In this document: piece after piece, positions 1,042 to 30,200 of the stretch
Layout of the letters: each line of letters opens with the position of its first letter
Numbering within the stretch: position 1 is the first letter of the stretch
Origin: Rhizaria sp. SCN 62-66
Taxonomy: Eukaryota
DNA length: 37,761 nucleotides
Reading direction: 5' to 3'
NCBI GenBank assembly: GCA_001724265.1
Contig: MEDY01000303.1
Coordinates: forward strand, 1 to 37,761
Notes under the pieces: generated by a model
The model's input: the letters and a program-made list of their open reading frames with translations, nothing else
Told to the model about the DNA's origin: nothing
The model's database searches: none
Program-made: the position numbers and the translations under genes

Positions 1042-3954
1042 ATGGACAAGGTGACCCTGCCGCTGCAGGACATCGTGACCAGCCGCATCGTCGAACCAGG
1101 CGTTCCTCCTGCCCCCGAGCTCACCTCCCTCGAGCACTTCTTTCACCTTGTTCATGCTGTACACCAACAAAGCGATGTTGAACAAGGTGGCTGGTGTCCT
1201 GACTACTTACGTCCTACCTCAACTCTGCAACAGAGCTCAGTCAGTGCCGACACTGCTGCTGCCGCTGCCTCTTCCGTGGACGGCCATAGCTCTGCACAGA
1301 ATTCAGTTGTTCTTTCAGCGGAACAAAACCAGAAGGACATCCACGAATGTGAATCAAGTTTCTACAACGCTGCTTTCTTCGCAAACATCTAGCATCGCGT
1401 GCTTGACAGCCTGACTTCCAGCACCCGCGAGCTCACTCCCACGACGTCAGACGTCCACAGCGCTGCATCGCTGCCGCCCGTCGACGAGGACGACGCCTTC
1501 CGCACCGCGCCGCTCGCCTCGCAACGCAAGCGCGACGTCTCCGCGGCTATCATGCTCAAGAGCAAACAGCTCGTCGACAGTGCGGACATCTTGCTCCATG
1601 GTGCGCTCTTGTTGCAGACGCAGTCCGTCGTGTCGCAACGCTTCTCGCACGACATGTCGCACCTGACCACGTTGTTCCCCACCGCACTCCCCGCTGTGCC
1701 GATCGTCACCGCGGGGACCACCGCTACCACGGTCGCGGCTGTGACCGCCGCCGTGCCCAGCACCGCGGGTGCCATCGCCGTCGACGCCACCGTCACGGTC
1801 TCCGCGACCAATAACGGTCACCTGGCGCGGACTGCAAGCAGCGCTGGCGCAGACGGCGCGGCCGCTGGCTCAACCGCGACTGCGACTGCTCCTGTGCAAC
1901 TGCCCCTGGCCACGCGCTCTGTCGTCGCAGTCCCGCACATCCTCACAGAGGCCTCGGCCGCCACCGCGCTCGCCGCCGCGCCCGACCTGGCCTCCTTCCT
2001 CGACGGCGCCACGCCGGTCGCGCACGCATGGCCGCCGCCGACGGTGCTCTCGCTGCGTGCCGTGCCGCGCCCGCTGCGCCCGTACGGCGCCCACGTGGAG
2101 CTGCCGGTGCCCGGCGCGCTCGCCGACGGGTTCGCCGTGCCGGGCGCCTCCTCCGCGGCCGCGGCGCCGACGCTGACGCTCGTGCAGCGCATGTCGACCA
2201 AGCCCGTCACTGCCGCGGCCGCCGCGGCGTCCGAGTCGCTCAACCCACCGCGCTTCCCGCCGCGCCCGCGCAGCGACGTGCACATTATCCGCGACTCATC
2301 TGGCGGCGCTATGACGCCCGCCGCGCTGCCTCCGCTGACTGCGGAGCCCGCGCTGGCGTGGGGCCCGCGGCGCTGGGCGGCCCCGCTGCAGGCGCTGCGC
2401 GCGGAGCAGCGGACCGCGTTGTTAATGGCCGTCGCGGTGCGCGTTGTGGCCGAGGCGCGCGCCGTGGAGCGCGGCACGGGCCTCTCGGGTGCGGGGCTTG
2501 ACGCCACGGACGACGCGCCGGCTGGGGAGTTCACCTGCAGCGTCGGCAGCGGCGGCGGTGTGGTGACCGTGGCGTTCGCTGGACAGGAGCCCGCGGTGAG
2601 CGTGCTGGTGAAGCCGCAGGCTGTGGGCATGCACTCGCTCTCTGGCGCCACGGTGGCCGCTGCAAACGCGCATATTAAAGAACGTGACACCGACGTTGTC
2701 GTCTCAAGTGGTACAATCGCGCGAATGAATGACGATGATCATGAAAACGGCGCAGATTCGAGTCGCTCGAGTGGCGCTTCAAGTCGCCCCCCACAGCCCA
2801 CGAAGCTCGTCCTCCACGGTCTCGCCTCGCTCTTTGACGCAGACTCTGCTGCACTCACAGCCGCTGCCGCGTCCCCGTATGTGTGCACGACTATCGGAAC
2901 TGCTGGACCGAGCTCAGCAGCAACGGTTAAGACTGTAACAGACTCTCTCGGCTCCGCTGTGTCCGAGACCGCGGCCCGAGACGTGCTGCTTTCGCGCAAC
3001 ACACTGCTCCTGCTCTGTGAAGTGCTCCTCGCTGAGCTCACCTCCGAGACTGCGCTGCTCTCGCACGCGGCGCTCTCCGGCGGCGTGCTGTCGCTCGCGC
3101 CCGCGCACCAGGAGACCGTGCTCGCCGACGTTGTCGCCAACGGCGGCGTGTTGCCGCGCCATTCCGACCACGCCGCTGCGGCCCGCGCCACCGCCGCGGC
3201 CGTCACCGCCGCGGTGGCCGCGACCACGACGGTGACGACCAGCACAGCGCGCAACGACAGTACCGTCACCGCCGGCGTGGCCAGCGGCGGCGGCGTCGTC
3301 GGGCTCGGCAGCGGCGGCGATGTGCCCCGCGCGCCCGGGCTTGGCGGCCTAACTTCCGTGCGCGACGACACTGCGATTACGCGACTTACCCTCGCGGGCC
3401 GCGCCAGCCGGTTTGCGCCCGCGACGACCCCTGGCGGCGCCGTCGCGGCGGCCCACACGTGCGGCGGCGGAGGCAGCGGCGGCGTCTCCGTGGTGACCAG
3501 CACCGTCACTGCGCCCCGTGCGGCTTCGGCCGCGGCCGCAGCGGGGTCGGTCCAGCGCCCGCGGTCTTTGCTGAAGCTGCTGGTCGCGTGCGTGCGCTTC
3601 GACCGCGCGCGGCGCGCCGTGGAGGCGCAGTGCGAGCGGTTGCGCAGTCTGGCCAGCGTCCGCAAGGCCGGCGTGTCACTGTCGCTGCGCGCCGTCGAGG
3701 GCACGCCGTACGGGGCGCGCCTGCGCGTGAGGGACGGGAACGGGCGCGTGGTAATGGAGATCGGGCTCAGCGGAGCTATGGTCGCCGTGACGGCGTATCC
3801 GACGCGGGACGTGAGAGCCAAGAGCGCCTACACTGCGTCCGCGGGCGAAGATGAAGAGAACGAGGTCGCAAGGCCAGTTCTGTGCGGCTTGGTACGGGCA
3901 ATTCAAATGCTTGAGATGAAGGTTCTGTCTGTGATTGAGGCTGCTGGTGTGTAA
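1042..3954 (+). CDS. MED17: Mediator subunit 17-like protein (~970 aa), one frame with an internal in-frame TAG at 1390-1392
   Basis: ORFs 922..1392 and 1399..3954 share a frame and are separated only by TAG CAT CGC. Three segments resemble MED17 N-terminal blocks as recalled: MDKVTLPLQDIVTSRIVEPG, NAAFFANI*HRVLDSL (cf. SALTEMCVLYDVLSIV) and LKSKQLVDSADILLHGALLL (cf. RKKKSLAGAAQILLKGAERL). Ends in TAA. Confidence 0.7.
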
Positions 3955-5280: not shown

Positions 5281-6312
5281 ATGCGTCTGGTGACCAGTAT
5301 GCTCGTCATGGCGATGCTCTTTGTGGCTGCCACCCAGGCCAACACCTACACCAGCGAGGGCGTTGTTGCTGACTTCTTCAAGGCGACTGAGTACGCGTCG
5401 ATGTTCCAGCAGTTTATTACCAAGTTCAAGCGCTCCTATGCCTCGTCTGCTTTTGCTGCACGCCTCAAGACTTTCAAGGACAACATCAACAAGCTGACCC
5501 AGTCCAACAAGGACAAGAAGCCCTACACTCTCGGTGTGACACAGTTCGCCGACCTTACCCCCGCTGAGTTCAGCAAGCAGGTCGCGGGCCTCCAGGTCCC
5601 TTCCAGTGCTTCCTTTGTCGAGGCTGACGCCGAGACCGAGGTTTCCGAGGCTCAACTCGCTGATGATACGACCACCTTCCGGGCCGGCTTCAACTGGTTG
5701 AACTACGTCCAGATCCGCCCCCCTCGCGACTCCAAGACCTGCGGCTCCTGCTGGGCTTTCACTGCTGCTGCGACCACTGAGGTGGCCCGCACTATCGCCA
5801 AGCAGGGCAACGAGTATCTCTCCACCCAACAGATCATCGACTGCTCCATTACTGGCTGCCGCGGCTGCAACGGTGGCTGGGCCGACTGCGCCTACCGCAC
5901 CATGATGGACGGCATGTATGACGAGAAGGAGGCGCCCTACCTTAACAAGGGGAGTGTCTGCGCCCCCCAAAAGATCCCCAGTCTCCTTGGCAAGCTGAAG
6001 CGTTTTGAGACCTTCGATAGCACTGATAAGAACCTGTTGGCACAGATCCGCAAGGGTCCCGTCTGGTCTGCCGTGAGCTCCTCCGGCCTTCAGCTCTACA
6101 AGAGCGGCATCCTCACCACCATGATTAACTGCACTGGCATCGTTGATTATTCGATCATGCTTTATGGCTACCATGCCGACGGCTACATCAACTATTTCCG
6201 GGCCAGTGCTAACTTTGGCCCTGACTGGGGTGAGGCTGGGTTCTTCAGGATTCAGAACACCAATGTCTGCAACCTCGCTAAAAACAAGAGTTACCGTCCG
6301 ATCGTTGTCTAA
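5281..6312 (+). CDS. Papain-family (C1A, cathepsin L-like) pre-pro-protein, intronless, probably catalytically inactive
   Basis: Signal peptide; I29 propeptide with ERFNIN-like (ARLKTFKDNINKLTQSN) and GxTQFAD motifs; CGSCWAF, GCNGG and WGEAGFF. The oxyanion Gln, catalytic His and catalytic Asn positions are substituted. Confidence 0.9.
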   Translation: MRLVTSMLVMAMLFVAATQANTYTSEGVVADFFKATEYASMFQQFITKFKRSYASSAFAARLKTFKDNINKLTQSNKDKKPYTLGVTQFADLTPAEFSKQVAGLQVPSSASFVEADAETEVSEAQLADDTTTFRAGFNWLNYVQIRPPRDSKTCGSCWAFTAAATTEVARTIAKQGNEYLSTQQIIDCSITGCRGCNGGWADCAYRTMMDGMYDEKEAPYLNKGSVCAPQKIPSLLGKLKRFETFDSTDKNLLAQIRKGPVWSAVSSSGLQLYKSGILTTMINCTGIVDYSIMLYGYHADGYINYFRASANFGPDWGEAGFFRIQNTNVCNLAKNKSYRPIVV

Positions 6313-7609: not shown

Positions 7610-9053
7610 ATGCGTCTTCTGACGACCGTGCTTGTTGTGGCGATGCTCTTCATCGCTGCCACTGAGGCCTCCTACATTGACTCCTCTGTAGAGGGCGTGA
7701 ACTTCTTCAAGGCGTCCGAGTACGCCTCGATGTTCCAGCAGTTCATCGCCAAGTTCAAGAAGAGCTACTCAACCTCTTCCTTTGCTGCTCGCCTCAAGGC
7801 CTTCACGTCGAACATTAACCTCATCACCCAGACCAACAAGCTTGGCAAGAAGCTTAAGCTCGGTGTGACTCAGTTCTCCGACCTCACTGTGTCGGAGTTT
7901 CGCTCTAAGTTCACTGGTATCACGCTCCCCACCAGCGGTTCGCTTGTCGAGACGGAGAACATGGTCGAGCAGGAGACTGAGGCTGATATTGAGGCCAACG
8001 CCGCTGACTTCAAGACTGGCCGTGATTGGCGCTCTATGATGACCGTCCCTCGCCACCAGCACGGGTGCGGCTCGTGCTGGGCCTTTGCCGCTGCTGCCAC
8101 CGTTGAGGGTGCCCGTGCCATCGCCGGCATTTCGGGCAAGCAGTACATTTCCACGCAGCAGCTCGTTGACTGCGCCAAGGATACTCCCTGCCGGGGCTGC
8201 CGCGGCGGATGGTTCACTTGCGCCTTTAGTGAGCTCCGCAACGGCTACTACACCGACGCCGACATCCCGTATCAGATTAAGGATCTGGGCTCCTGCAGTA
8301 CTAAGACTTCTTCCACGTTTAAACCCCTCGGAAAGATCAAGAAGTTCGACTCTGTCCCTGGCAATGACAAGCAGTTCCTCAAGGCGCTCTCGTCTGGTCC
8401 CATCTGGACGACCTTGAATGCTGATATCCTTCAGAACTACGCTAGTGGCATCGTCACGAGCGACACTAACTGCTCCAAGGTGCGTACAACACCGTTGACA
8501 GAAAATGTTCGATTCCCTTCATGCTACTTTAATCATCGCGACGACGCACTTTTTACTGAGCTCACGTTTTTTTCATCCCGTCCACATGCTTCTTTCATAC
8601 GACTCTTTTCAATAGACTGTGAACCACGCTGTTGTTGCTGTGGGTTATGCTCAGGATGGCAACATCTCTTACTACTACATCCGCAACTCGTGGGGTGAGA
8701 GCTGGTACGTTCAGCTTTATTTCATCATCGCTTCTTCTCTCCTATCTTCGCTTCAAGTTTGTTCATTTCATGCCAAACGTACAGGCGTTTTCCTGTCGTA
8801 TCATCGCCGCGGTGTGCTCGGCACTGACGGAAGCGAGTTGGGCTGAGAGCCAAGATGATTCACTAGCTCATTGGTTTTGTTTAGTATCATCTTCATCTCT
8901 TTGCATTACTTCATCCTCATCGGTTGTGTTCATGTCCACTGTACTTGTTATTGATGGCCTTGTGTATTCTATAGGGGTGAGCAGGGGCACTTCAGGCTCC
9001 AAGCCGGAGCTTGCGGGCTGTACTCGAACGCAGCGGCTCGTCCCATCCTCTAA
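7610..9053 (+). CDS. Papain-family (C1A, cathepsin L-like) cysteine protease, 3 exons, 345 aa
   Basis: Exons 7610-8479, 8616-8704, 8975-9053; introns GTGCGT..AATAG and GTACGT..TATAG. The spliced product has QHGCGSCWAF, VNHAVVAVGY and IRNSWGESWGEQGHFRL, so Q/C/H/N are all present. Ends in TAA. Confidence 0.93.
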
Positions 9054-18626: not shown

Positions 18627-19494
18627 ACTGTCGCGGTCTCACTGTGCCGCGGCGAGAGGCGTGAGGAGAGGTAAGCAGCCACGGGCAGAGGGCGTGCAGA
18701 TGAGAACAAAGGAAGCAGAAAAGTGAGCCCAAATACGAGTTGTAACAAAAAAGTCGGAAATATGTAAATAGCGACAAGCGGCTTCCTATAACGGATTTTG
18801 GATAATGAAACGATTGTCACAAAATATCGGCGCGGACCGAACAAGATTCGCATTTGGCCCGACACTGGACCGAAAAAAATGTGATCGATCGTCGTCGAGC
18901 GATGGGTCTCAAAAGACCACATTTTAAGCGACTTGTATATACTGCGTGTATCCGTCATTAGGAGTGCCACAACTGTGTACTGCTACTGCATGAGCGCCAA
19001 CGTACTATGTATTTGGGGCGCACGTGTATTATGACTATATTCTAGTCAAATCAGTCCTTTCGCGAAATACTTTACGACTGTCATTAACACCTAATTCCCC
19101 GATTCACGTTTCGCGCTATAGAGCATATCTAATATTGTCTGATCGCATCATCAGCATGGGGACAAAAAGCTCACTATTTGATTTTTTTGGTGTGTTGCCT
19201 CTACTTCTAACCTCTGTGAGCTTAGTGCGCGCAGTGCGTGTCACTCGCACCCTCCCCTCACAACAAGCCTCTACCACCTGCGGCTTATTTGCACTTGAAC
19301 ACACACGGCAGTCGACAACAAGGGTTTGAAGCGACAAAACCTCGTGTGCAGCTTGTTTGTCTGCTTGAGAACTTTTTTATAGCGCATACCATTCGCGCAA
19401 ACGCATATTTTTTTTTAACTTAAGCTTCATCTCGCAACAGCCACATAACACATTGCAACAGCGATTGTCTCTTTGCTGCTTCAAGATAACCAGG

Positions 19495-21477
19495 ATGGGT
19501 TTCTTCAGCCGCTTTCTCGAGTTTTACTCGACTTTTTCGATCCTGGTGGGCGCTCCCGCTCTCTGCGTGGCGGCCCTGGCGACTCTGATGCGCGTCCCAT
19601 TCGCCCCGCCGCGCGTCGTGAGATGGGGCCGCTACACGCTCGGCGCCTACCTGCTCTGGATGCTGCTGCTCGACCGGCACACGCCAGTCCGCGGCGGCCG
19701 CCGGCGCCCGTTTCTGCGTTCGCTGTGCTTGTGGCGGTATATGCGCCGCTACTTCTCGGCGCATTTGGTCAAGGATAGCGGCGACCCGGACCCCAAGGGC
19801 CGATACCTGATCGCCATCCACCCGCACGGCATCGTGTCCTTCGGCACTTTCTGCAACCTGGTCGGCAACCCCGTGCACGCCTTCCCGGGGCTCGACTACC
19901 GCGTGGTGACCGTGAGCGCCAACTTCCTAGTGCCCATCTGGCGCGAGCTCATCCTGGGGCTCGGTTTCGCCGACGCGGACCGCAGCAGCGTGCGCGGCAT
20001 GCTAGAGTCAAACATCAGCGTCGGCATCGTTGTCGGCGGCGCGGCCGAGAGCCTCGAGTCGCGCCCGGGTGTCAACGACCTTACTCTTAACCGCCGCTAC
20101 GGCTTCATTCGCCTCGCGATGGAGACTGGGGCGTCGTTGATCCCCGTATTCACATACGGTGAAACGGATCTGTTCGCGCAGGCAGTGCCGAACCCTCAGG
20201 GATCGATCGTGCGCCGCTTCCAGAACGGACTGATGCGCATGTTCGGCTTCACGGTGCCCGCCATCTACGGCCGCACCATCGGACTGGGCATCATGCCCTT
20301 CCGCCGGCGCCTGCTCACGGTCATCGGCGCACCCATCCCGTCGCCGCTGTGCCCGACGCCGACGCTGGAGCAGGTCCAGGCCCACCACGCGCGCTACGTC
20401 GCTGCGCTGCATGCGCTCTACAACAAGTACCGGCCGCTGGCGCACGCGCTGGGTGTGCCCGCGCCCGAGCTGCGCATCACGGACCGGCCGCCCGGCGAGC
20501 GCGAACTGGACCGGATCCGCGCCGACCTGCAACGCCGGCAGCTGCACGCCGAGTCGCTCGCCAAGGGCCGTGGCGTCGACGTCACCGATGAGCGCTTCCG
20601 GTTCCGCGCATACGGACTGCCGGACGAGTTCGCGGCGGCCAAGGGACTGCGCCAGGCAGTCGGGTGGGAGGAGGAGCAAGACCTCGTCGCAGCCGCTGAG
20701 TCTGCAATCGCTGAGTCAGCAGTTGCTGAGTCAGCCGCGGGTGGCGAGTCTGCCAACGCGGCAAATGCGGCGCAATCTGCCAGTGCGGCGCAATCTGCGC
20801 CGGGTGGTGCCTCCTCCTCCGGCCTCATCTCTGTGATCAAATCTGATTCACAGTCGTCAGGCGCCACTGCGACGTCTGCGTCAGCGCATGTGCCCGGCAC
20901 TCAGGCGCCTGCCCTGGCTGCGGCGTGGGCACAGGGCTGGGACGGGCACCGCGAGGGCGGCGGCGGCGCGGCGGGCGCGGCGGCGGGGGCGCGCTCCGCC
21001 GCCGAGGCTGCGGCGCGCGAGGCCCGGGCGCTGGGCGCCAGCGAGACCGACGTGAACAGCATTCGCGAGAATAACTTTATCGGCGGCGGTGGCGGTGGTG
21101 ACGGGGGCGGCGGCGTGGCGGTGTCGCCGGAGGCGGCGTACTTAGACGGCGGCGCGACCGCGAGTGCGGGCAGACTAGCCAGCGGACTGGCCAGCGGCGG
21201 CGACGACAGCGGTGCCCTGGCGAGTGCAATTGCGGGTGTGGGCGACGTCGGCGACAGCGCTGGCGGCGATGCTGGGGCTACTGGTGATCAACAAACCTTG
21301 ACCTCTGCTGCAGGTGACAAGGGCGGCAACAACAGCAGCAACAATGGCAACTTTAACAATAACAACACTGTGATGGACCGTGAGGATGAGTGCGGGCTGG
21401 ATAGTGTCGCAAAAACCACACAACAACAGCAACAGCAACAGGAACCGCGGTCGCCTCTGTTGAAGGCTCAGTTGTGA
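19495..21477 (+). CDS. DGAT2: Diacylglycerol O-acyltransferase 2 (DGAT2/MOGAT family) with a long low-complexity C-terminal extension, ~660 aa
   Basis: N-terminal hydrophobic segments, RRYFS, HPHG catalytic motif, VVGGAAESL, RRYGFIRLAMETGASLIPVFTYGETDLF, VIGAPI. ATG at 19495 is preferred over the TTG at 19453. Ends in TGA. Confidence 0.92.
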   Translation: MGFFSRFLEFYSTFSILVGAPALCVAALATLMRVPFAPPRVVRWGRYTLGAYLLWMLLLDRHTPVRGGRRRPFLRSLCLWRYMRRYFSAHLVKDSGDPDPKGRYLIAIHPHGIVSFGTFCNLVGNPVHAFPGLDYRVVTVSANFLVPIWRELILGLGFADADRSSVRGMLESNISVGIVVGGAAESLESRPGVNDLTLNRRYGFIRLAMETGASLIPVFTYGETDLFAQAVPNPQGSIVRRFQNGLMRMFGFTVPAIYGRTIGLGIMPFRRRLLTVIGAPIPSPLCPTPTLEQVQAHHARYVAALHALYNKYRPLAHALGVPAPELRITDRPPGERELDRIRADLQRRQLHAESLAKGRGVDVTDERFRFRAYGLPDEFAAAKGLRQAVGWEEEQDLVAAAESAIAESAVAESAAGGESANAANAAQSASAAQSAPGGASSSGLISVIKSDSQSSGATATSASAHVPGTQAPALAAAWAQGWDGHREGGGGAAGAAAGARSAAEAAAREARALGASETDVNSIRENNFIGGGGGGDGGGGVAVSPEAAYLDGGATASAGRLASGLASGGDDSGALASAIAGVGDVGDSAGGDAGATGDQQTLTSAAGDKGGNNSSNNGNFNNNNTVMDREDECGLDSVAKTTQQQQQQQEPRSPLLKAQL

Positions 21478-22138
21478 CTGTGAGTTAGCTCGCATGCGCA
21501 GTAGCCGTTCCGTCTGGGAGACTGTGTATCAAGAGTTAATACCGTTTATCTGTGTGTGCTGCAAGCTATGGTCAGGTGTTGAGTGTATAGTTAATGTGAA
21601 CACCGTTTGAGCATCGAAGCGCACAACTACATTTATATATAGTTTTTGTTTTTCTCGTGATCTATTTATTTAGTTTTTGCTTTTGTCAGAAATACACTTG
21701 CGTATTCCAACTATCCATTTGACGTTTGATGCAAGTTATACCGCTTGATATATTGATCTCTGCGCCATGTTGTTTGCTCGAGTAGTCAGAAAATAATGTT
21801 TGTGCTGTATTGGTTTACAACAAATCCTTCATGCGAAAAGCAATAAAGAAGCCATGGGCTGCAAGTACGCGTAAACGATGCGCGCTTTGCGGAGTTAAGA
21901 GTAGTGGGGTGAAAAATAGGGTATACTAGATAGGGTTGGGGCGAAGTGTGGACTCGCAGGTGGTGAATGACACGTGTACGACAAATGGCACAAATCTATA
22001 GCGCAGCAGCTCACAGAGAGCTTATCTCATCTCTTAGTCGTCAACAACAGGTGGTTAACCAAACGAGAGTGCTGGAGAGAGTGTGCCTGTGCTTGTCGAG
22101 CAGTTTACAGCTAAGGCAGAGGTGCTGTACAGGCGCGC

Positions 22139-22600
22139 TTAGTCAGACTCGTCCTCAAAGAGCGTCTCCTCGCGCTCGCACTGACCGAAGCCGTGGCGCG
22201 AGGCGCAGACGAAGCAAAAGGGGTATTTCTTGTCGCCGGGCAGCACGCGCGCGTTCTTGCCCTGGCCGGTCGGCACGACGTGGCTCGCGGGCGTCACGGA
22301 CACGCCCTTGCCCGCCGCGGGGGCGCCGGCGCCGGGCCCGTTGGCAAGCTCCTGGCCCTCGCCGTCGGTGGCGGGGGCGGCGGACTCGCGCTCGGCCTCG
22401 GCGGCGAGCGCGTCGTTGATGAGCGTGCGCATCGCGGGCGGCACCAGCTGGCCGTCCATGTGCGCCGCGATGTCGTCGGGGCGGGTCGAGGCAGGGCCGT
22501 CGCAGTCGCCGCCGACGGGCAAGGTCGAATCGGTGGTGGTCGGCTGGGTCGTCGTGTCGTCGTCGTCGTCGAAGCTGGGGACTGTGAAGGGGGCGGACAT
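22139..22600 (-). CDS. Small hypothetical protein (153 aa) with a C-terminal CCHC zinc-knuckle-like motif
   Basis: GC-rich ORF in AT-richer flanks. ATG at 22600 follows an acceptor-like GCAG. C-terminal CFVCASRHGFGQC fits C-x2-C-x3-H-x4-C. Ends in TAA. Confidence 0.7.
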   Translation of the reverse strand: MSAPFTVPSFDDDDDTTTQPTTTDSTLPVGGDCDGPASTRPDDIAAHMDGQLVPPAMRTLINDALAAEAERESAAPATDGEGQELANGPGAGAPAAGKGVSVTPASHVVPTGQGKNARVLPGDKKYPFCFVCASRHGFGQCEREETLFEDESD

Positions 22601-23003
22601 GGGCGACGCTGCGGCGAGCAAAGCGTGGGTGGGATACACGGGTTTGAGTGTGTGTGGAATGAGACAGTGAGTTATGATAGTGTAATATAGTGAATAAATA
22701 TGTTTCGCATCATAATATCTAATATGGTCGTGGTGTAAGTGGTGACGGTCATTTGGTGGTGAACTACTCAGTGCAAGATCACTCTCTCGAGCGCTCTGTC
22801 AGAAGCCCACTCTCAGCAAGTCAGTCCAGATCGAGAGAAACCAACGTGTATCTCACACTAGCGCGAATCTCATGTCATGTTGCTAGTAGAAAGCGTATTT
22901 TCTTGCGCGTATGTATATTGTATTATCATTAGTCATTCTAAATCCTTTGTATTCCTTGCTCACCACCTTTCTGCCTGTCACCTCCCGTTCAGTCCAACGC
23001 TTC

Positions 23004-23973
23004 ATGATCCGCGTCGGCCGTGGCGTTGAGACCTCTGGTCGCGCCCCTCAGCTCGACGTCGTCGTCCTCGGCTCGCACCAATGGTACGTTATCTCGACAT
23101 AGTGATTATGTATCCCTTAACTATTTGTTATATCTCAAATTCGACATCTCAGTCATCGTATCTGTCGTTACGCCTTCGACTCCACCCTTTCCTTCGCGCT
23201 CTCACCGCCACTCACTGCTTCTTATCCAATCTCTGTCATCATTCCCAATCTTTAGCGGCAAGTCTTCTCTTGTGCGTCGCCTGCTCACCAGTCAGCTCCC
23301 GCTCACCGCCGCCTCAGCAGCCCCCGCCTCCTCCTACAGCCTCGGCAGCACTGCCAACTCTAGTGGCAGCGGCAGCGCCAGCGCCGCTGGCGACGGCGTC
23401 ACCCCCACGCTCGGCGTCGACATGTTCACGCTCGAGCAGACCGTTGACGGCGCGCGCCGCACGCTGTGCCTCTGGGACTGCGCTGGACAAGAGCGTCTGA
23501 GGCCCATTGTGCAGCAGGTGCTGCCCCACGCCAAGGTACGCACAAACACGCTAAATGACACATTATACACCATAAATATGTGTAAATCAACATGAATTTT
23601 GATATCATTTGGATGGTAAGCTAACCGTGCTGTATTTGTGTGTATCCGATGCTTTCTCATATTTGTCGTGACTTTATAGATTGCTTTGTTGGTATACGAC
23701 CCCACTTCCTAGAGCTCTTTCCTGGAGCTGCTCTACTGGCGCAACGAGTGCGTGCGCCTCTGCCCCGAAGCGCGGCTCTTGCTGGTGGCCACGCGCGCGG
23801 ACCAGGCCGAGGTGGCCACGGTCACTGCGGCTGCGGGCCACGCGCAGGGCCGCGAGTGGGGCGCCGCGGGGCACCTCACCGCATCTGCTGCGACTGGGCT
23901 GGGCGTGGCCGCAGTGGTCTCGGCCATGATCGACGCCGATAGCGGTGACTTCAGCGGCGATAACGACGCTTGA
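23004..23973 (+). CDS. Divergent Rab-like small GTPase, 3 exons, 217 aa, with an in-frame TAG at 23710-23712
   Basis: Exons 23004-23083, 23256-23535, 23680-23973. Spliced motifs: VVVLGSHQCGKSSL (G1), PTLGVD (G2), LWDCAGQERLRPI (G3), IALLVYDPTS*SSFLELLYW (beta4-alpha3), LLLVATRAD (G4-like), TASAATG (G5-like). Ends in TGA. Confidence 0.85.
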
Positions 23974-24243
23974 ACGGTGTTGTGATATCTCTGTCTATTC
24001 TGTTACATAGTTTGTCAATAATGAGTGTGCCCCATTCAAGAGCGCAATAATACAAGGCCAGTCATCTTTCGAGAGCTTGATTAAAAGACGTGATCGATGT
24101 TCGAAACTTGGAACGATTAACAAAATATTATGTAAAATAATTACGAAAAAACGTGTATTGGCTTTTAAAATACACACTATCAGCTATAGAGGTTATATCA
24201 CTCCATTAAGTCAACATTTTCGTTTTCGTGTCATGATCCGCAT

Positions 24244-27200
24244 TTATGCGCGCTGCTGTGCGACGAAGTTCTGCAGCATGAGCACAAGCGCGTTGAACGC
24301 GGGCTCCCACGGCGTGAACTCGACCTTGCGGACCTGGCGGATGCGCTGCAGCTGCTGCATGAACTCGCCGGCCTTCAGCTTCGCCTCCGCGGCCTTAGCG
24401 CGCATCACGGCCGCGCGCGAGTTGTCGGCGTTGGCGGCCAGCTGCGGTGTGTATCCGGGGTCGAGAGCCACGGCCGTGAGCGCGGATTTGAGCTCGACGG
24501 TGAGGCCGCGGAAGAAACTCTGCATGTTCTGCGCCAGCAGCGGCGGAATGCGATCCGCGTTGAAGATAATGTGCGAGAGCGTGAAGCAGAGCATGACGAT
24601 GTTGGTGCAATCCCACGGCTTGAGACCCGCCGCCTGCAGGTGGCGCTGCACGTACCGCACGAAGCGCGGCGCGACGTGCCCGTCGACCTGCAGCGACAGC
24701 GCGCGGGACCCGGGGTAGCCGACGTTGGCGGCGGCGACGCGCGCGGCCGAGATGAGCGCCTTATCGAACTGTTGCATCGTCGCCACGGCGTGCACGTAGA
24801 GCCGATGCACGAGCACGGGCAGCACCGAGACGACGTTGCGCAGCGACTCGACTGACTTGACGATGGCGCGCGCGCCGTGCTGCGTCAGCGGCGGCATCGC
24901 GCACCGCAGTAGCGCGCGCGGGGCCGCGGTCGTCACGGTCACCTGCACGCCCGACGGGGGCGCGTAGAGGTCGCCGACGCCGGCGCAGTGAAGCACCGCG
25001 GCCGCGCCGTCTCCGCCGTTGCCGCCGCCGCGCTTGGCGTGACCGCCGCTACTCCCGGTGAGGGTGCCCATGAGGGCGGAGGCGACGCACTTGCCCTTGT
25101 CGCCCTTGTTGTTCTTGTCGAACGGCGTCAGCGCGCCAGAGTTGTCCGAGTTGCCGCTGGCACTGCCAGAGGACGCGGCGTTGGGCGCGAAGGGCGTGTA
25201 CGTAACGCAGCGCCAGGGGTTCCAGTGCGGCATCCAGCCCTCGCGGCCCTTGGATGGCGCGCCCGCGTCGGCCGCGGCAGCCTTGGAGGCCTTAAGCTTG
25301 TTGATGGCGGCGTGCACGTCGTCGACGTCGTCCTCCCCGCCCACCGCGCTGCGGTCCCGCCCGCCCGCCGTGCCGCTCGCGATGGCCTCCTCAGTGTTGG
25401 CGACCGCGGTGCACACTTGCAGCAGCACGCCGATCTGCTCCAGCACCAGGTGCGACGCACGCAGCTCGCGGTCGTTAAGCTGCTGCAGCCGCTGCCGCCG
25501 GTCCGCCGGCGACACGCGCGGCTCCGCGCCCGCGGACCCAGCGGCCGCTGTCGGCAGCGCGTTGGCGACGGCCACGGACCGGCGGTGGTCGGCAACGGCG
25601 CGGCGTTCTTCTTCGGGGTCGAAGAACAGCTCGGCCGTCGCGGCGGCAGCAGCGGCGGCGGCAGCGGCGGCGGCGGCGGCGGCGGCGTTCGCGGCCGCCT
25701 GCTGCTGTTGCTGCTGCTCGCTCTGCGCCCGCTTCGTCGTCGACTTGTTCGTCGCCGAGCCCGACACGGAGATCGACGGGGACGGCGACGAGCGCCGCCC
25801 GGTCGCGCGGGACGTCGAGACGCCGGTCTTGGCGCTAGCGGCCTTGCTGCCCGCGGTGCGCGGGGCCGGGTCGGCGGACTCGGCACCCTTCTTGGCACCG
25901 CCGTCGGCGGCGTCGGCGGCCGCTCGGCGGCGCGCGCGGGCCTGGGCGCGCGGGTCGTCGGAGTCGTCGGCGGCGCCCTTGCGGCCACGGAGGGCGTCGC
26001 GGGAAACGCGCACGCGGTCGTCGTCATCATCGTCGTCATCATCGTCGCTGTCGGGGACAACGTCGCGGCGAGATGACTTGACGGTGAATTTACCGGCCGC
26101 CTTGTCCTCCTTCTTGGCGGCGCTGGCGCGCACGGGGGCGGGCGGGCGCTCGGTGGGCTGGGTCACGGCCTCAACCTCGTCTTCGTCGATACTGAACTCG
26201 AACTCCTCACCAGAGTCGTCGTCCTCGTCCTCGTCGTCGTCGTCAGCATTGAGGTCAAGGTCGAACGACTGCTCGCTGTCGCTACGCTTGCCCTTGGTCT
26301 TGCGGCGGTGGGCGTCGTCGTCGCTGTCTTGCTCGCTCCACTCGTCCTCATCTTCGTCCTCGTCCTCGTCGTCGCCGAAGTCGTCGTCGTCGTCGTCGTC
26401 CTGCTCCTCGTCGTCGTCGTCGTCGTCGGCGTCGCCGTCGAGGTACACATACGCGTCCGACGCCGGGTTGCTCAGCGCGGACATGTACTCGGCGCCCGCC
26501 GTGCCCAGCCCGTGGCCGACGTAGCACATCATCGGTGAGAAGATGAGCGTCGCGACGGGCACGAAGAGCGGGAAGCTGCCCGCCCGCTTCAGCGCGCTGC
26601 CGACCGCCAGCGCCAGCTCCAGCGCCTTGATGTGGTTGAACGGCAGCACGGCGTGGACTAGCTGGCACAGCAGCGCGCTGTCAAACGTCGCCGGGTGCAG
26701 CGACGACAGCGCCGCGGCATCGGCGTACTGGCCGATGTCCTCCATGAAGCCCTCGGCACCGCCCTCGAGCGCGCCCGCCGCCGACGACCCGCCGCTCGCG
26801 CCGGCGCGCTTAGCCAGCCCCAGCTTGCGCAGCGCGGCCATGATGCCCAGCCCATTGCCGCTGCCGCCCGCGGCGGTTAGCGCGGCCTCGGCGCGCTCCA
26901 TCTCCTCGACTTCAGCGAGGTCCAGCGACTCGGAGGTCCCGTCGCCGAGCTCGGCTTCGACCGCGGCAGCCTCAGCGGCGGCGGCGGCGATCGCAGACGC
27001 GGCGGCGGCGCCCGTGAGGCCCTGCTGCTTGATGCGCTTGAGCTGGTAGGCGTGCCTGCGCTTGGCCAGCGTGCGCCGGCGCTGGATCAGGTCGAGGCAC
27101 GACGCTGCCGCCACGTGCGTCACCACCTCGGGCTGCAGCGCGATGATCTCGGCCCAGCCCTGGCGCTGCACGAGGTGTACTAAGGTAAGCCGCAGGCGGA

Positions 27201-30200
27201 AGAAGTGGAGCCGCGAGGCCGTGGCTGCGTCAACCCAGGTGAGGCGCACGGCGCCGGGCGGCGCGGCGTGGGCGAGCTTGTGCAGCCAGAGCGAGCAAGC
27301 GCGGTCCAGCCGCAGCCGCAGCACGGCCTCGGCCTCGGGGGACAGAACCGATAAGTGATACGCAGCCACGCCGTCGGTCATGGGGCAATCGAGCGTCGAC
27401 AGAGAGGTCGGGATGCTGCTGCCAATGCCGCTTGAGCCACTGCTCGAGGCCGAGGAAGAGTTGTTCTTGGTGGCGGTCGTCGCGGCGGCCGTGGCCGTGG
27501 CGCCCGCGGCGGCGGCAGCAGCGGCGGCAAGCGCGACCTGTCCGCCCCTGCGGCGGCCCGCGAGGGCGGCGAGCGCGGCGGGCGCGTGGGGGCCCATCGC
27601 CGTGCCCCAGCCCGACTGCGAGGCCAGCGCGGGGACGTCGGCGCCCGCCACAATGGTCAGCACGTTCTGCGCGCGGGACGTCGCAGACAGCTGCCAGTAG
27701 GCGTCGATCAGAGCCGCGCACACGCGGGCAGCACCCTGGACCAGTTTCGAGCAAAGAGCATAGATTATACCAGAAGTGAGCAAGATGAAAGTCAAATGAA
27801 TTCTCCTACCAAGGAAATAACATTGGTTTAAATATACAAAATTACATTCTAAAATCAAATGAGTTCGTTTCGTATTGTGATATTGCAGTATAAACGCACC
27901 TGGAAGTCGCGGATGTAGAGCAGCAGGTCGAGCAGCCTCTCGGCCGTGGGCAGCGCGCCCGGCGCCAGCAGCGAGCCGTACGCAGCGCCTGCGCCCGCGC
28001 CCGCGCCGCCGCCACCGCCACCGACGGCGCTGCTGGAGGACGCGGAGCCAGCGAGCGATGCGGAATAGCGCGCGTTTTCGCTGGCGGCGGCGTCCTCTGC
28101 CGAGGGCGGGATGCAGACCGTGGGCAGCCCCGTGCTGAAGGCGTGCGAGGAGGCGAACACAGGCGCCGGCGCGGTCACCGTCGGCGTCACGGCCACGAAG
28201 CCCGCGCCGGACGCCTGGCCGGCCGAAGCGGCCGCGGCGGCGGCAGCGGCGGCCGCGGAGGCGGCGTTGGAGCTCGCGCCCGCAGCCGCGGCAGCAGAGG
28301 CAGCGGCGGCCGCGGCAGCAGCAGCGGCGGCAGCAGCGGCGGCGGCGGCGCCACCCGATGACGACGTCGAGGCCGACGCAGCGGCGGCGGATGCGGCAGC
28401 CGCAGCGGCCGCGGCTGCAGCGGCGGCCGTGTTGCCGGGCGTGCCCGCGGCAACGGTGGCGGTGGCGGCCATAGCGGTGCCGACAGACAGGTCGTGCGTG
28501 AGCGTGGTGGCGAGCACGTCCTGGCACTCGGCCAGCGACGCCGCTAGCACGCCCGCCACGCTAGCGCTGCCAGTGGAGCTGCCGGCGTTAGCCGCGGCGA
28601 CGGCGACGGCGTGCGTGGCCGCGTCAGCTACGGCGGAGACGCCGACCGCGGCTGCCAGGGGCGAAACGAGCCCCAGCGCGGAGGGCAGCGGGACGGCGTA
28701 GCCAGCGAAGAGATCGTCGCGCGCGTCCTCGCCCGCGCGCCACAGCTCGGCGAGTCCGGCGGCGGGCATAACGTGCGCCGTCATGCCGCCCAGCGCGTCG
28801 GTGGCGATCATCGCGCCCGGGGCCGAGACGGACCAGCCGACCGAGACCAGCGGCGCGCCACCGGAGGCGTCGGCGTCGGTGTAGACGAGGCGGTGCGGCG
28901 CCGCTCGGAGCGACCACAGCGCGAGACGACCGTCCTATAAGGGAAATGCAAAAAGAATGAAGCAGTTGTGGTTTCGATATGAGACATTCGTCATGAAATT
29001 AAAGAAGATATATCAACATGAAATCGACAAATTAATGTAATGAGAAAAATACTCGCGGGGCTGTGAGATTGTGTGCATCGTACCTGGTGTCCGGAGAGCA
29101 GGAGCTCGGGGTGGGAGCGCGACCAAGCGAGTGAGAGCGCGGGCGCGCGCGTGTGCGCCGTGAGCCGCACCACCGGGCAGCGCTCGAAGCGCGCGTCCCA
29201 GATGTTGATCTCGTTGTCAAGCGAGGCCGACGCAAGCAGATGCGGCACGAGCGGGTTGGCCGCGATGGCCGTGACGGCCGAGGCGTGCGCATGCGAGTGC
29301 GAGAAGCGGACGCAGTCTGCCGTGGCCGAGGCCAGCGCGCGCGGGTCGACGAGCTTGAGCGAGCCGTGGGCTGAGCCCATGGCAACGCCGGCGGCCGCGC
29401 CCTGCGGCACCCACGCCAGCGCCGTGATGGGCGACGAGCTGCCGGCCTCGGACCACAGCGGCGCCGGGTCCGCCACGCTCCACGTCGACAGCACCGAGCC
29501 CGACGACGTGGCGAACTCGGTCGGGTTCACCGGGTTGATGGCCACCAGCGGACCGCGGGCAGCGGGCGCCCAGAGCCCGGGCAGCCCGGCCCACGCGGCG
29601 GCGCGGCCGCCGGGCCCCGCGGTGGGCGTGAGCGCGCACGAGGGCACCGCGAAGGCGCCCGTGAGGCGGAGCAGCGCGGGCGGGCCCGTCGAGTCGAGGC
29701 CCAGGAACGAAGACCGAGCCACCACGGACCGGCGCGGGGCGTTGGCCGCGTTGGCAACGGCGGCCGTGACGGTGCTGTTGGCGGCCGTCAGCCGGCCCAG
29801 TTCGCTGCTGCTCGTGTGCGGAGACACGTTGCTCGGCGTCGAGATCGTCGCGGCGGCCGCGGCGGCTACGGCGGCGGCGGCCACGGTCACGTCCTCGCCC
29901 ATGCTCAGCCCTGGGGGCGCCTCGGCGAAGGCTGGCACGGACATGTAGGCGCGGTAGTGCTTCGCGGCGGCCGCGGCCTCGGCGGCGGTCGCTTCGGCGG
30001 TGCCATCGGCCTTGCTGCTACCGGATTTGGACTTGGACTTGACCTTAGAGGACTTGGAGTCGTTCGCGGGGGACTTGACAGAGCTCTTCTTGTCAAATAC
30101 GCCGCTGAGCGCACTGCGCCTCAGGCCGCCTTCGCCGTCATCGTCGTCGTCATCGTCGTCATCGTCGTCGGCAACGTACTTGCCGCCGCCGGCGCGGAAC

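Follow-up and report, generated by a model that had tools for sequence, protein, structure and literature searches.

A TAG codon within a Rab-like GTPase gene and the probable use of UAG as glutamate in a protist nuclear genome

Introduction

UAA and UAG nearly always share one meaning in nuclear genetic codes. An exception probably occurs in the genome represented by contig MEDY01000303.1 (C303), one of 714 contigs in a 34.9 Mb eukaryotic assembly; its full length of 37,761 nucleotides is the window considered here. The element of interest is a TAG triplet that stands in frame within exon 3 of an intact Rab-like small GTPase gene at 23004–23973. Sequence evidence makes it likely that this genome uses a variant nuclear code in which UAG is glutamate and UAA and UGA are stops. 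Because the protist appears to translate TAG in this way, the TAG of the Rab-like gene is very probably an ordinary amino-acid codon.

In published codes that uncouple the two triplets, UAG is leucine, glutamine or serine with UAA as a stop, or it is glutamate with UAA also reassigned (PMC11687900, PMC10553269). Nuclear reassignments of UAG only include the rhizarian exLh (Leu) and Iotanema spirale (Gln; PMC5304391), phyllopharyngean ciliates (Leu, Gln), Protocruzia tuzeti (Gln) and Scotinosphaera (Ser; PMC11687900). Glutamate is the meaning of UAG in Oligohymenophorea sp. PL0344, which has UAA as lysine, only UGA as a stop and ten CUA transfer RNA (tRNA) genes (PMC10553269). It is also the meaning of both UAR codons in peritrich ciliates (PMC11687900) and in Blastocrithidia, with UGA as tryptophan and a dual role for UAA (PMC12153298). 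In the release factor eRF1, Thr32 bonds the guanine of UAG and is replaced by Gly in Iotanema (T32G; PMC5304391), and the GTS motif is retained in standard-code relatives (PMC9161772). Across the openly accessible literature, supplements aside, no report was found of a code with UAG as glutamate and UAA kept as a stop, and a term search of PMC12930898 finds no mention of genetic codes.

The Rab-like gene and its in-frame TAG

The gene has three exons with predicted boundaries.

23004..23083, plus strand: exon 1, with the ATG and the start of the P-loop; GTACGT donor at 23084; boundaries predicted from sequence
23084..23255, plus strand: intron 1, 172 nucleotides (nt), GT..AG, from sequence
23256..23535, plus strand: exon 2, with the end of G1 (GKS), an Ala/Ser/Gly-rich insert, G2 (PTLG) and G3 (WDCAGQE); Pfam Ras 27.9 bits
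23536..23679, plus strand: intron 2, 144 nt, GT..AG, from sequence; branch-point-like CTAAC at 23621–23625
23680..23973, plus strand: exon 3, with beta4 (IALLVYD), the in-frame TAG, a G4-like TRAD, a G5-like SAA and the TGA stop; from sequence, Pfam and PDB alignment
23710..23712, plus strand: in-frame TAG, codon 131 of 217; most likely Glu from genome-wide evidence

After TTTATAG, which ends at 23679, exon 3 reads IALLVYDPTS-TAG-SSFLELLYW, has A as the +4 base after the TAG and stays open to the TGA at 23971–23973. An earlier sequence-only reading had described both this reading frame and its +4 base correctly, and the Ras/Rab pattern that it saw on either side of the TAG holds. With X at the TAG, exon 3 scores 33.6 bits against Pfam Ras (profile 75–157), and 21.7 bits when begun after the TAG; solved structures of Rab5, Rab26 and Sec4 align without gaps over both flanks. 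The best PDB matches are Rab5, Rab26, Sec4 and Rab27B. The same TAG is present in an unspliced contig of run X4 (23412–24382; single difference, at 24167), a run that may be the source sample. An X2 contig match ends at 23255 with 7 letters left over, which hints weakly at splicing of intron 1.

Rab/Ras-family small GTPases (PF00071) share the G1–G3 motifs and the beta4-alpha3 pattern with this protein. It is nonetheless divergent, with an Ala/Ser/Gly insert after G1 and TRAD in place of NKxD, and it lacks the C-terminal cysteine motif by which canonical Rabs are prenylated, the protein ending in FSGDNDA.

This TAG is the second in-frame one of the window, as had been claimed.

1390..1392, plus strand: first in-frame TAG of the window, codon 117 of the 970-codon open reading frame (ORF) 1042–3954, from sequence

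The 970-codon ORF has no Pfam match, its coding signal upstream of the TAG is mixed, and no donor matching GT[AG][ACG]G occurs in 1041–1400.

TAG as a sense codon across the genome

Genome-wide use of TAG was examined in 60 stretches of 10 kb (600 kb) with a trained coding model, in which a stop triplet with in-frame coding signal on both sides was called exon-internal. Among 105,795 exon-internal codons, such calls numbered 25 for TAG, 1 for TAA and 3 for TGA, and 5, 0 and 1 under a stricter setting. In non-coding windows, TAG has a 20% share of stop triplets, relative to which the TAG excess has p=2e-14. The lone TAA call is a true stop behind a ubiquitin-like ORF. The same test on 3–4 kb loci around search matches, which are richer in gene edges, gave 13 TAG, 12 TAA and 3 TGA, and most of these TAA and TGA calls look like noise from untranslated regions or gene ends. 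The model missed both TAGs of the window.

Gene ends called by the classifier in the 600 kb comprise 23 TAA, 23 TGA and 3 TAG; by inspection, none of these three TAG calls or of two in other loci is convincing, the TAA and TGA calls being counted uninspected. Of 30 Ras-family loci, 23 have a match to a prenylation motif plus stop. With two duplicates and two off-frame matches dropped, 19 distinct genes remain, of which 13 end in TAA, 6 in TGA and none in TAG (p=0.016).

Family searches of the genome, with acceptor and intron TAGs discarded by inspection, yielded 12 exon-internal TAGs: in the Rab-like gene, eRF1, six kinases, SUV3, a ubiquitin-like domain and two USPs. Each TAA or TGA excised from a family match fell within an intron or outside the reading frame; among matches with TAA/TGA or mixed stops, the excision left aside C317, C6:20127, C68:3971, C178:20377, C66, C430, C140 and four WD40 rows. 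No usable TAG was found among WD40 (123), ABC (20) and AAA (22) matches, and kinesin (54) and DEAD (43) matches gave acceptor TAGs only. TAG accounts for 0.024% of exon codons and 0.6% of GAG+GAA+TAG. Most TAGs lie in poorly conserved sequence; a Pfam scan of the 25 TAG-centred segments found a domain in 3. Two public records carry the signal independently of the assembly: over 1,626 nt, TAG included, metagenome contig L193 agrees with the eRF1 locus at every position, and database protein P0261, on three contigs, ends exactly before a kinase TAG. Both may come from related samples. The exon-internal excess and the TAG-free gene ends uphold the sense meaning first suggested by the Rab-like gene, and TAG is almost certainly a sense codon in this genome.

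TAG use clusters in some genes, since a Nudix-like gene (L170 2600–3780, plus strand; G000:C44), for which no Pfam match was found, has at least six in-frame TAGs and one gene in L125 has three. A divergent kinase family with a C-terminal helical region has four across three paralogues (L072, L073, L074).

Residue identity at TAG codons

In eRF1, the TAG falls in GK-x-KK at position 107 (P0035 numbering), where 106 of 117 homologues have Glu, 10 have Asp and one has Val (3 fused or overlong matches of 120 were left out). In a second set of loci, the column reads Glu in 77, a gap in one and the identical TAG in one (79 aligned of 80). In a TKL kinase, the TAG falls at the hinge (VAIVT-x-LCEGGSL). 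Homologues were collected with a query stopped before the TAG; 149 were found, 18 without coverage of the column, and among the other 131 the residue is Glu in 128 and Ser, Pro and Asn in one each. The two nearest homologues read VTELC. Gln is absent from both columns, in the 117 + 79 eRF1 homologues and the 131 kinase-hinge homologues. In RAF and EGFR kinases, the residue at this hinge position is Gln. The SUV3 TAG column has Asp in the human protein and Ser in the other solved homologue shown.

Pfam bits summed over the 12 sites are E 732.9, K 731.1, Q 730.3, S 723.0, D 719.4, L 717.5 and Y 717.5, which rejects Leu and fails to separate E, K and Q. At the Rab site, they are Q 35.2, E 35.1, K 35.1, S 34.4, D 34.2, Y 33.3 and L 32.9. 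The sequence-only reading was right that this column does not suffice to identify the residue; Leu as the residue is not supported, because it is the lowest of the seven residues there and ties for lowest over the 12 sites, and no Leu-type CUA tRNA was seen. If TAG is sense, glutamate is very likely the residue that it encodes.

A CUA tRNA related to tRNA-Glu

In the genome, 37 matches were found to a pattern that combines a CUA anticodon with A37. ARAGORN, run on 23 of those loci, found one CUA tRNA; the others are tRNA-Ile or tRNA-Leu(CAG) copies or are not tRNA-like. A G37 variant of the pattern matched five times; by eye, none of these sequences resembles a tRNA, and ARAGORN was run on one of them. 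Both patterns were aimed at the CUA anticodon.

G000:C84, about 76008–76080, minus strand: CUA tRNA, 73 nt, short variable loop; ARAGORN, Rfam 58 bits

C84 is a GC-rich contig that also has kinase and kinesin matches. The nearest relative of the CUA tRNA within the genome is tRNA-Glu(CUC) (47/73 without gaps), compared with Asp 39, Gln 38 and Leu 42 with gaps. The acceptor-stem start TCCCA/TGGGA is common to the CUA tRNA and both tRNA-Glu genes of the genome, the T stem is shared with tRNA-Glu(CUC), and CUC differs from CUA by one base. An Asp tRNA was rejected as parent (39/73). No CUA tRNA derived from tRNA-Gln was found; the CUA tRNA matches the genome's own tRNA-Gln at 38/73 and differs in the acceptor stem. 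The CUA patterns found no Leu-type tRNA with a long variable arm, although intron-bearing or unassembled copies would escape them. Pyrrolysine was rejected, since the ARAGORN label follows the anticodon only; no search aimed at PylRS was made.

Stop recognition by eRF1

Compared with columns on which at least 93% of 116 homologues agree, eRF1 departs from near-invariant residues at T32S, M34V, T58K, F114V and L126M, among others. The GTS motif becomes GSS (T32S) and TASNIKS becomes KASNIKS (T58K), with L69 kept. From these substitutions, the eRF1 of this genome probably recognises UAG poorly. The eRF1 relative P0004 also has T58K, F114V and L126M but retains T32, and its organism may share the code or precede it.

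The eRF1 gene itself has its in-frame TAG at the conserved Glu107 (L062, minus strand, TAG at 1596; G000:C63). Within a low-use or incomplete code change, this UAG at codon 107 could act as a feedback valve on the level of the release factor. That is a tentative idea of low probability, held weakly because a 437-codon gene such as eRF1 has about a 10% chance of at least one TAG and the closest relative has Val at 107. In such an incomplete state, which is equally doubtful, the single tRNA-Glu(CUA) would have a competitor at UAG, either an eRF1 that has not fully ceased to terminate there or near-cognate tRNA-Gln.

Proposed mechanism and implications

A copy of tRNA-Glu(CUC) probably changed one anticodon base to give CUA. 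This tRNA would probably be charged by glutamyl-tRNA synthetase because it kept a Glu-type acceptor stem, and the Glu-type CUA tRNAs of PL0344 provide a precedent (PMC10553269). It would pair with UAG and not with UAA, and the changes in the stop-recognition motifs of eRF1 would leave UAG probably poorly recognised. The TAGs inside exons, the lack of TAG at the sampled gene ends, the tRNA gene and the eRF1 substitutions are direct observations; charging with glutamate, loss of UAG recognition and the choice of the intron-2 acceptor are inferred. Splicing at 23679 would give a full 217-residue GTPase with YDPTSESSF. If UAG is glutamate, peptides would read YDPTSESSF, NSDGKEK and VAIVTELCEGGSLFDR; if it is glutamine, they would have the corresponding Gln forms.

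A code with UAG as glutamate and UAA and UGA as stops would, if true, be a further variant, with the tRNA gene and the eRF1 changes in one genome. It would make testable which eRF1 residues tell UAG from UAA, T32S and T58K being the candidates. It would also imply that a reassigned codon can endure at a frequency of about 1 in 4,000 codons with most genes giving no sign of it, and that standard annotation truncates roughly 5–10% of 200–450-codon genes in this genome, as happened to database entry P0261.

Alternative explanations

The TAG of the Rab-like gene is most likely translated. The code could have changed and this TAG could still serve mainly as the intron-2 acceptor, or the gene could have decayed, so that the triplet is rarely translated. 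Some observations do pull in that direction. CACTTCCTAG is a plausible acceptor at 23712, with 18 pyrimidines in the preceding 27 nt compared with 19 for 23679; the composition model scores the 30 nt at 23680–23709 as non-coding (0.76, versus 0.17 coding); many TAGs flagged at match edges elsewhere proved to be acceptors. The four RNA runs show no Rab intron-2 joint among the joints listed over 19000–28999, and no RNA contig covers any TAG site examined. PolyA run X1 has exact contigs in two neighbouring genes and none over exon 3 of the Rab-like gene among the matches listed, X2 contigs within the gene cover exon 2 only, and X5 has only short pieces of low identity in 19000–28999. The choice of acceptor rests on homology and the branch-point motif because no RNA contig spans the junction. 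Both argue for 23679. An acceptor at 23712 keeps the frame but drops beta4, as the sequence-only reading stated. It removes 33 nt, and those 11 codons bring 11.9 Pfam bits and align with beta4 of solved Rabs. The AG at 23679 is the first one downstream of CTAAC, and the first AG after a branch point is as a rule the acceptor. G1–G5-like motifs are present as well. A TAG that is mainly an acceptor, or that lies in a decayed gene, is very improbable. Still less credible is a standard code in which the TAGs are nonsense alleles, assembly errors, leaky read-through or sites of A-to-I editing (TAG to TGG). TAG is rare in exons and the assembly may include foreign contigs, but exon-internal TAG far exceeds TAA and TGA and is absent from the 19 defined gene ends, the sole eRF1 gene found has a TAG that is identical in another public contig, and a cognate CUA tRNA exists. 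Editing was rejected because the aligned columns hold no Trp, and tiny introns at the TAGs because the alignments are colinear.

The case for glutamate has counterweights of its own. The CUA tRNA gene exists in one copy and shares no more than 64% of its sequence with its nearest relative, the margin of Glu over Lys and Gln in summed Pfam bits is small, and the closest eRF1 relative (P0004, 84% identical) has Val at 107, so that the column is relaxed in this lineage. Gln faces TAG in four paralogue or repeat comparisons within the genome (L072, L074, a MORN repeat and ubiquitin), the sequence around the 25 sampled TAGs is rich in Gln (19 of 200 flanking residues, with 5 Glu; flank scores of -0.2 for Q and -11.0 for E), and at the MORN site Pfam scores Q 0.9 bit higher than E. 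These points would suit a UAG that is sense throughout the genome and means glutamine, as in Iotanema, or that receives Glu and Gln ambiguously through mischarging or near-cognate tRNA-Gln(CUG). However, the eRF1 and kinase-hinge columns are without Gln, the acceptor stem of the sole CUA tRNA is of Glu type and differs from that of the genome's tRNA-Gln, and no Gln-type CUA tRNA occurs among the 37 pattern matches. At three of the four sites, other paralogues have D, L or R. Gln neighbours would be expected under glutamate as well, because CAG to TAG is a transition and Gln to Glu a conservative change; Gln opposite TAG may thus reflect CAG-to-TAG transitions tolerated in weakly constrained sequence. 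A glutamine or ambiguous meaning is therefore improbable, and leucine, as in the rhizarian exLh, has next to no probability. The lineage is possibly rhizarian, and Leu is top or near top at the MORN, PLA2G12 and USP5 sites, but over 12 sites it lies 15.4 bits under Glu, it is absent from the eRF1 and hinge columns, and the CUA tRNA has a short variable loop with no Leu-type CUA tRNA found beside it.

Lineage and other observations

Rhizaria is a plausible lineage for this genome. The best named matches of its CTP synthase are Leptophrys vorax and Plasmodiophora brassicae. A quick-search tree groups the query with three environmental proteins (SH-aLRT 100); the surrounding clade (SH-aLRT 99) holds Leptophrys, Plasmodiophora and a Ploeotia entry and does not fix the placement. 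Gromia has a single Ser insert at polyubiquitin junctions (PMC13746701). For this rhizarian insertion test, no polyubiquitin junction is assembled here, and a junction pattern search gave no relevant match; ubiquitin genes of this genome start MSMQIF. A metagenome scan turned up no relative with an identity between 69% and 100%, and the runs that contain the window are labelled activated sludge or wastewater. The only small-subunit ribosomal DNA found (L293; G000:C706:4459–8903) is AT-rich (40% GC). It has four group I introns and an insert that by eye resembles a homing endonuclease, and the contig may be foreign to the bin.

Stand-alone ubiquitin-like monomers that end GGHPQ or GGHSQ occur in L125 (G000:C3:10001–20000) and L289, and L125 has three ubiquitin-like copies, two of them degenerate. 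In L281 (G000:C681:3012–3527), a ubiquitin-like domain is fused with a Peptidase_S74 chaperone domain and contains an in-frame TAG in place of a CAG of the genome's own ubiquitin; this may be a mobile or viral element that has adapted to the code of its host. In the window, two papain-family protease genes lie in tandem on the plus strand (5281–6312 and 7610–8698); the usual catalytic His region of the former reads VDYSIML.

Comparison with known variant codes

In the way it works, this system resembles the UAG-only reassignments of exLh, Iotanema and phyllopharyngean ciliates, yet it stands outside their Leu and Gln codes. In common with them, UAG occurs inside intact conserved genes that lack in-frame UAA and UGA, UAG is unused as a terminator in the genome sample, where UAA and UGA are kept as stops, eRF1 is altered in its stop-recognition motifs, and a CUA tRNA is present (in those codes, for two ciliate genomes). 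Iotanema and this genome both changed eRF1 at Thr32, to Gly in the former (PMC5304391) and to Ser, together with T58K and a retained L69, in the latter. UAG was not found at conserved Leu columns in eRF1 or the kinase hinge, as the Leu code of exLh and the TARA phyllopharyngeans would place it, and Pfam scores over 12 sites disfavour that code. For a Gln code of the Iotanema type, the two best-conserved TAG columns are without Gln and four paralogue comparisons have it. Where this genome departs from all UAG-only codes is in its probable residue, Glu, in a tRNA related to tRNA-Glu and in the great rarity of UAG.

Among codes with UAG as glutamate, the shared features are UAG at conserved Glu columns and a tRNA-Glu-like CUA tRNA, the latter also described for PL0344. 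UAA is a sense codon in PL0344 and the commonest stop sampled here, and ten CUA tRNA genes there compare with one found here (PMC10553269). UAA as an amino acid, a feature of PL0344, peritrichs and Blastocrithidia, was not found in the genome sample, where TAA ends 13/19 Ras-family genes. Amber as glutamate is probably common to all of these systems; peritrichs and Blastocrithidia reassigned both UAR codons (PMC11687900, PMC12153298), whereas this protist appears to have reassigned only UAG.
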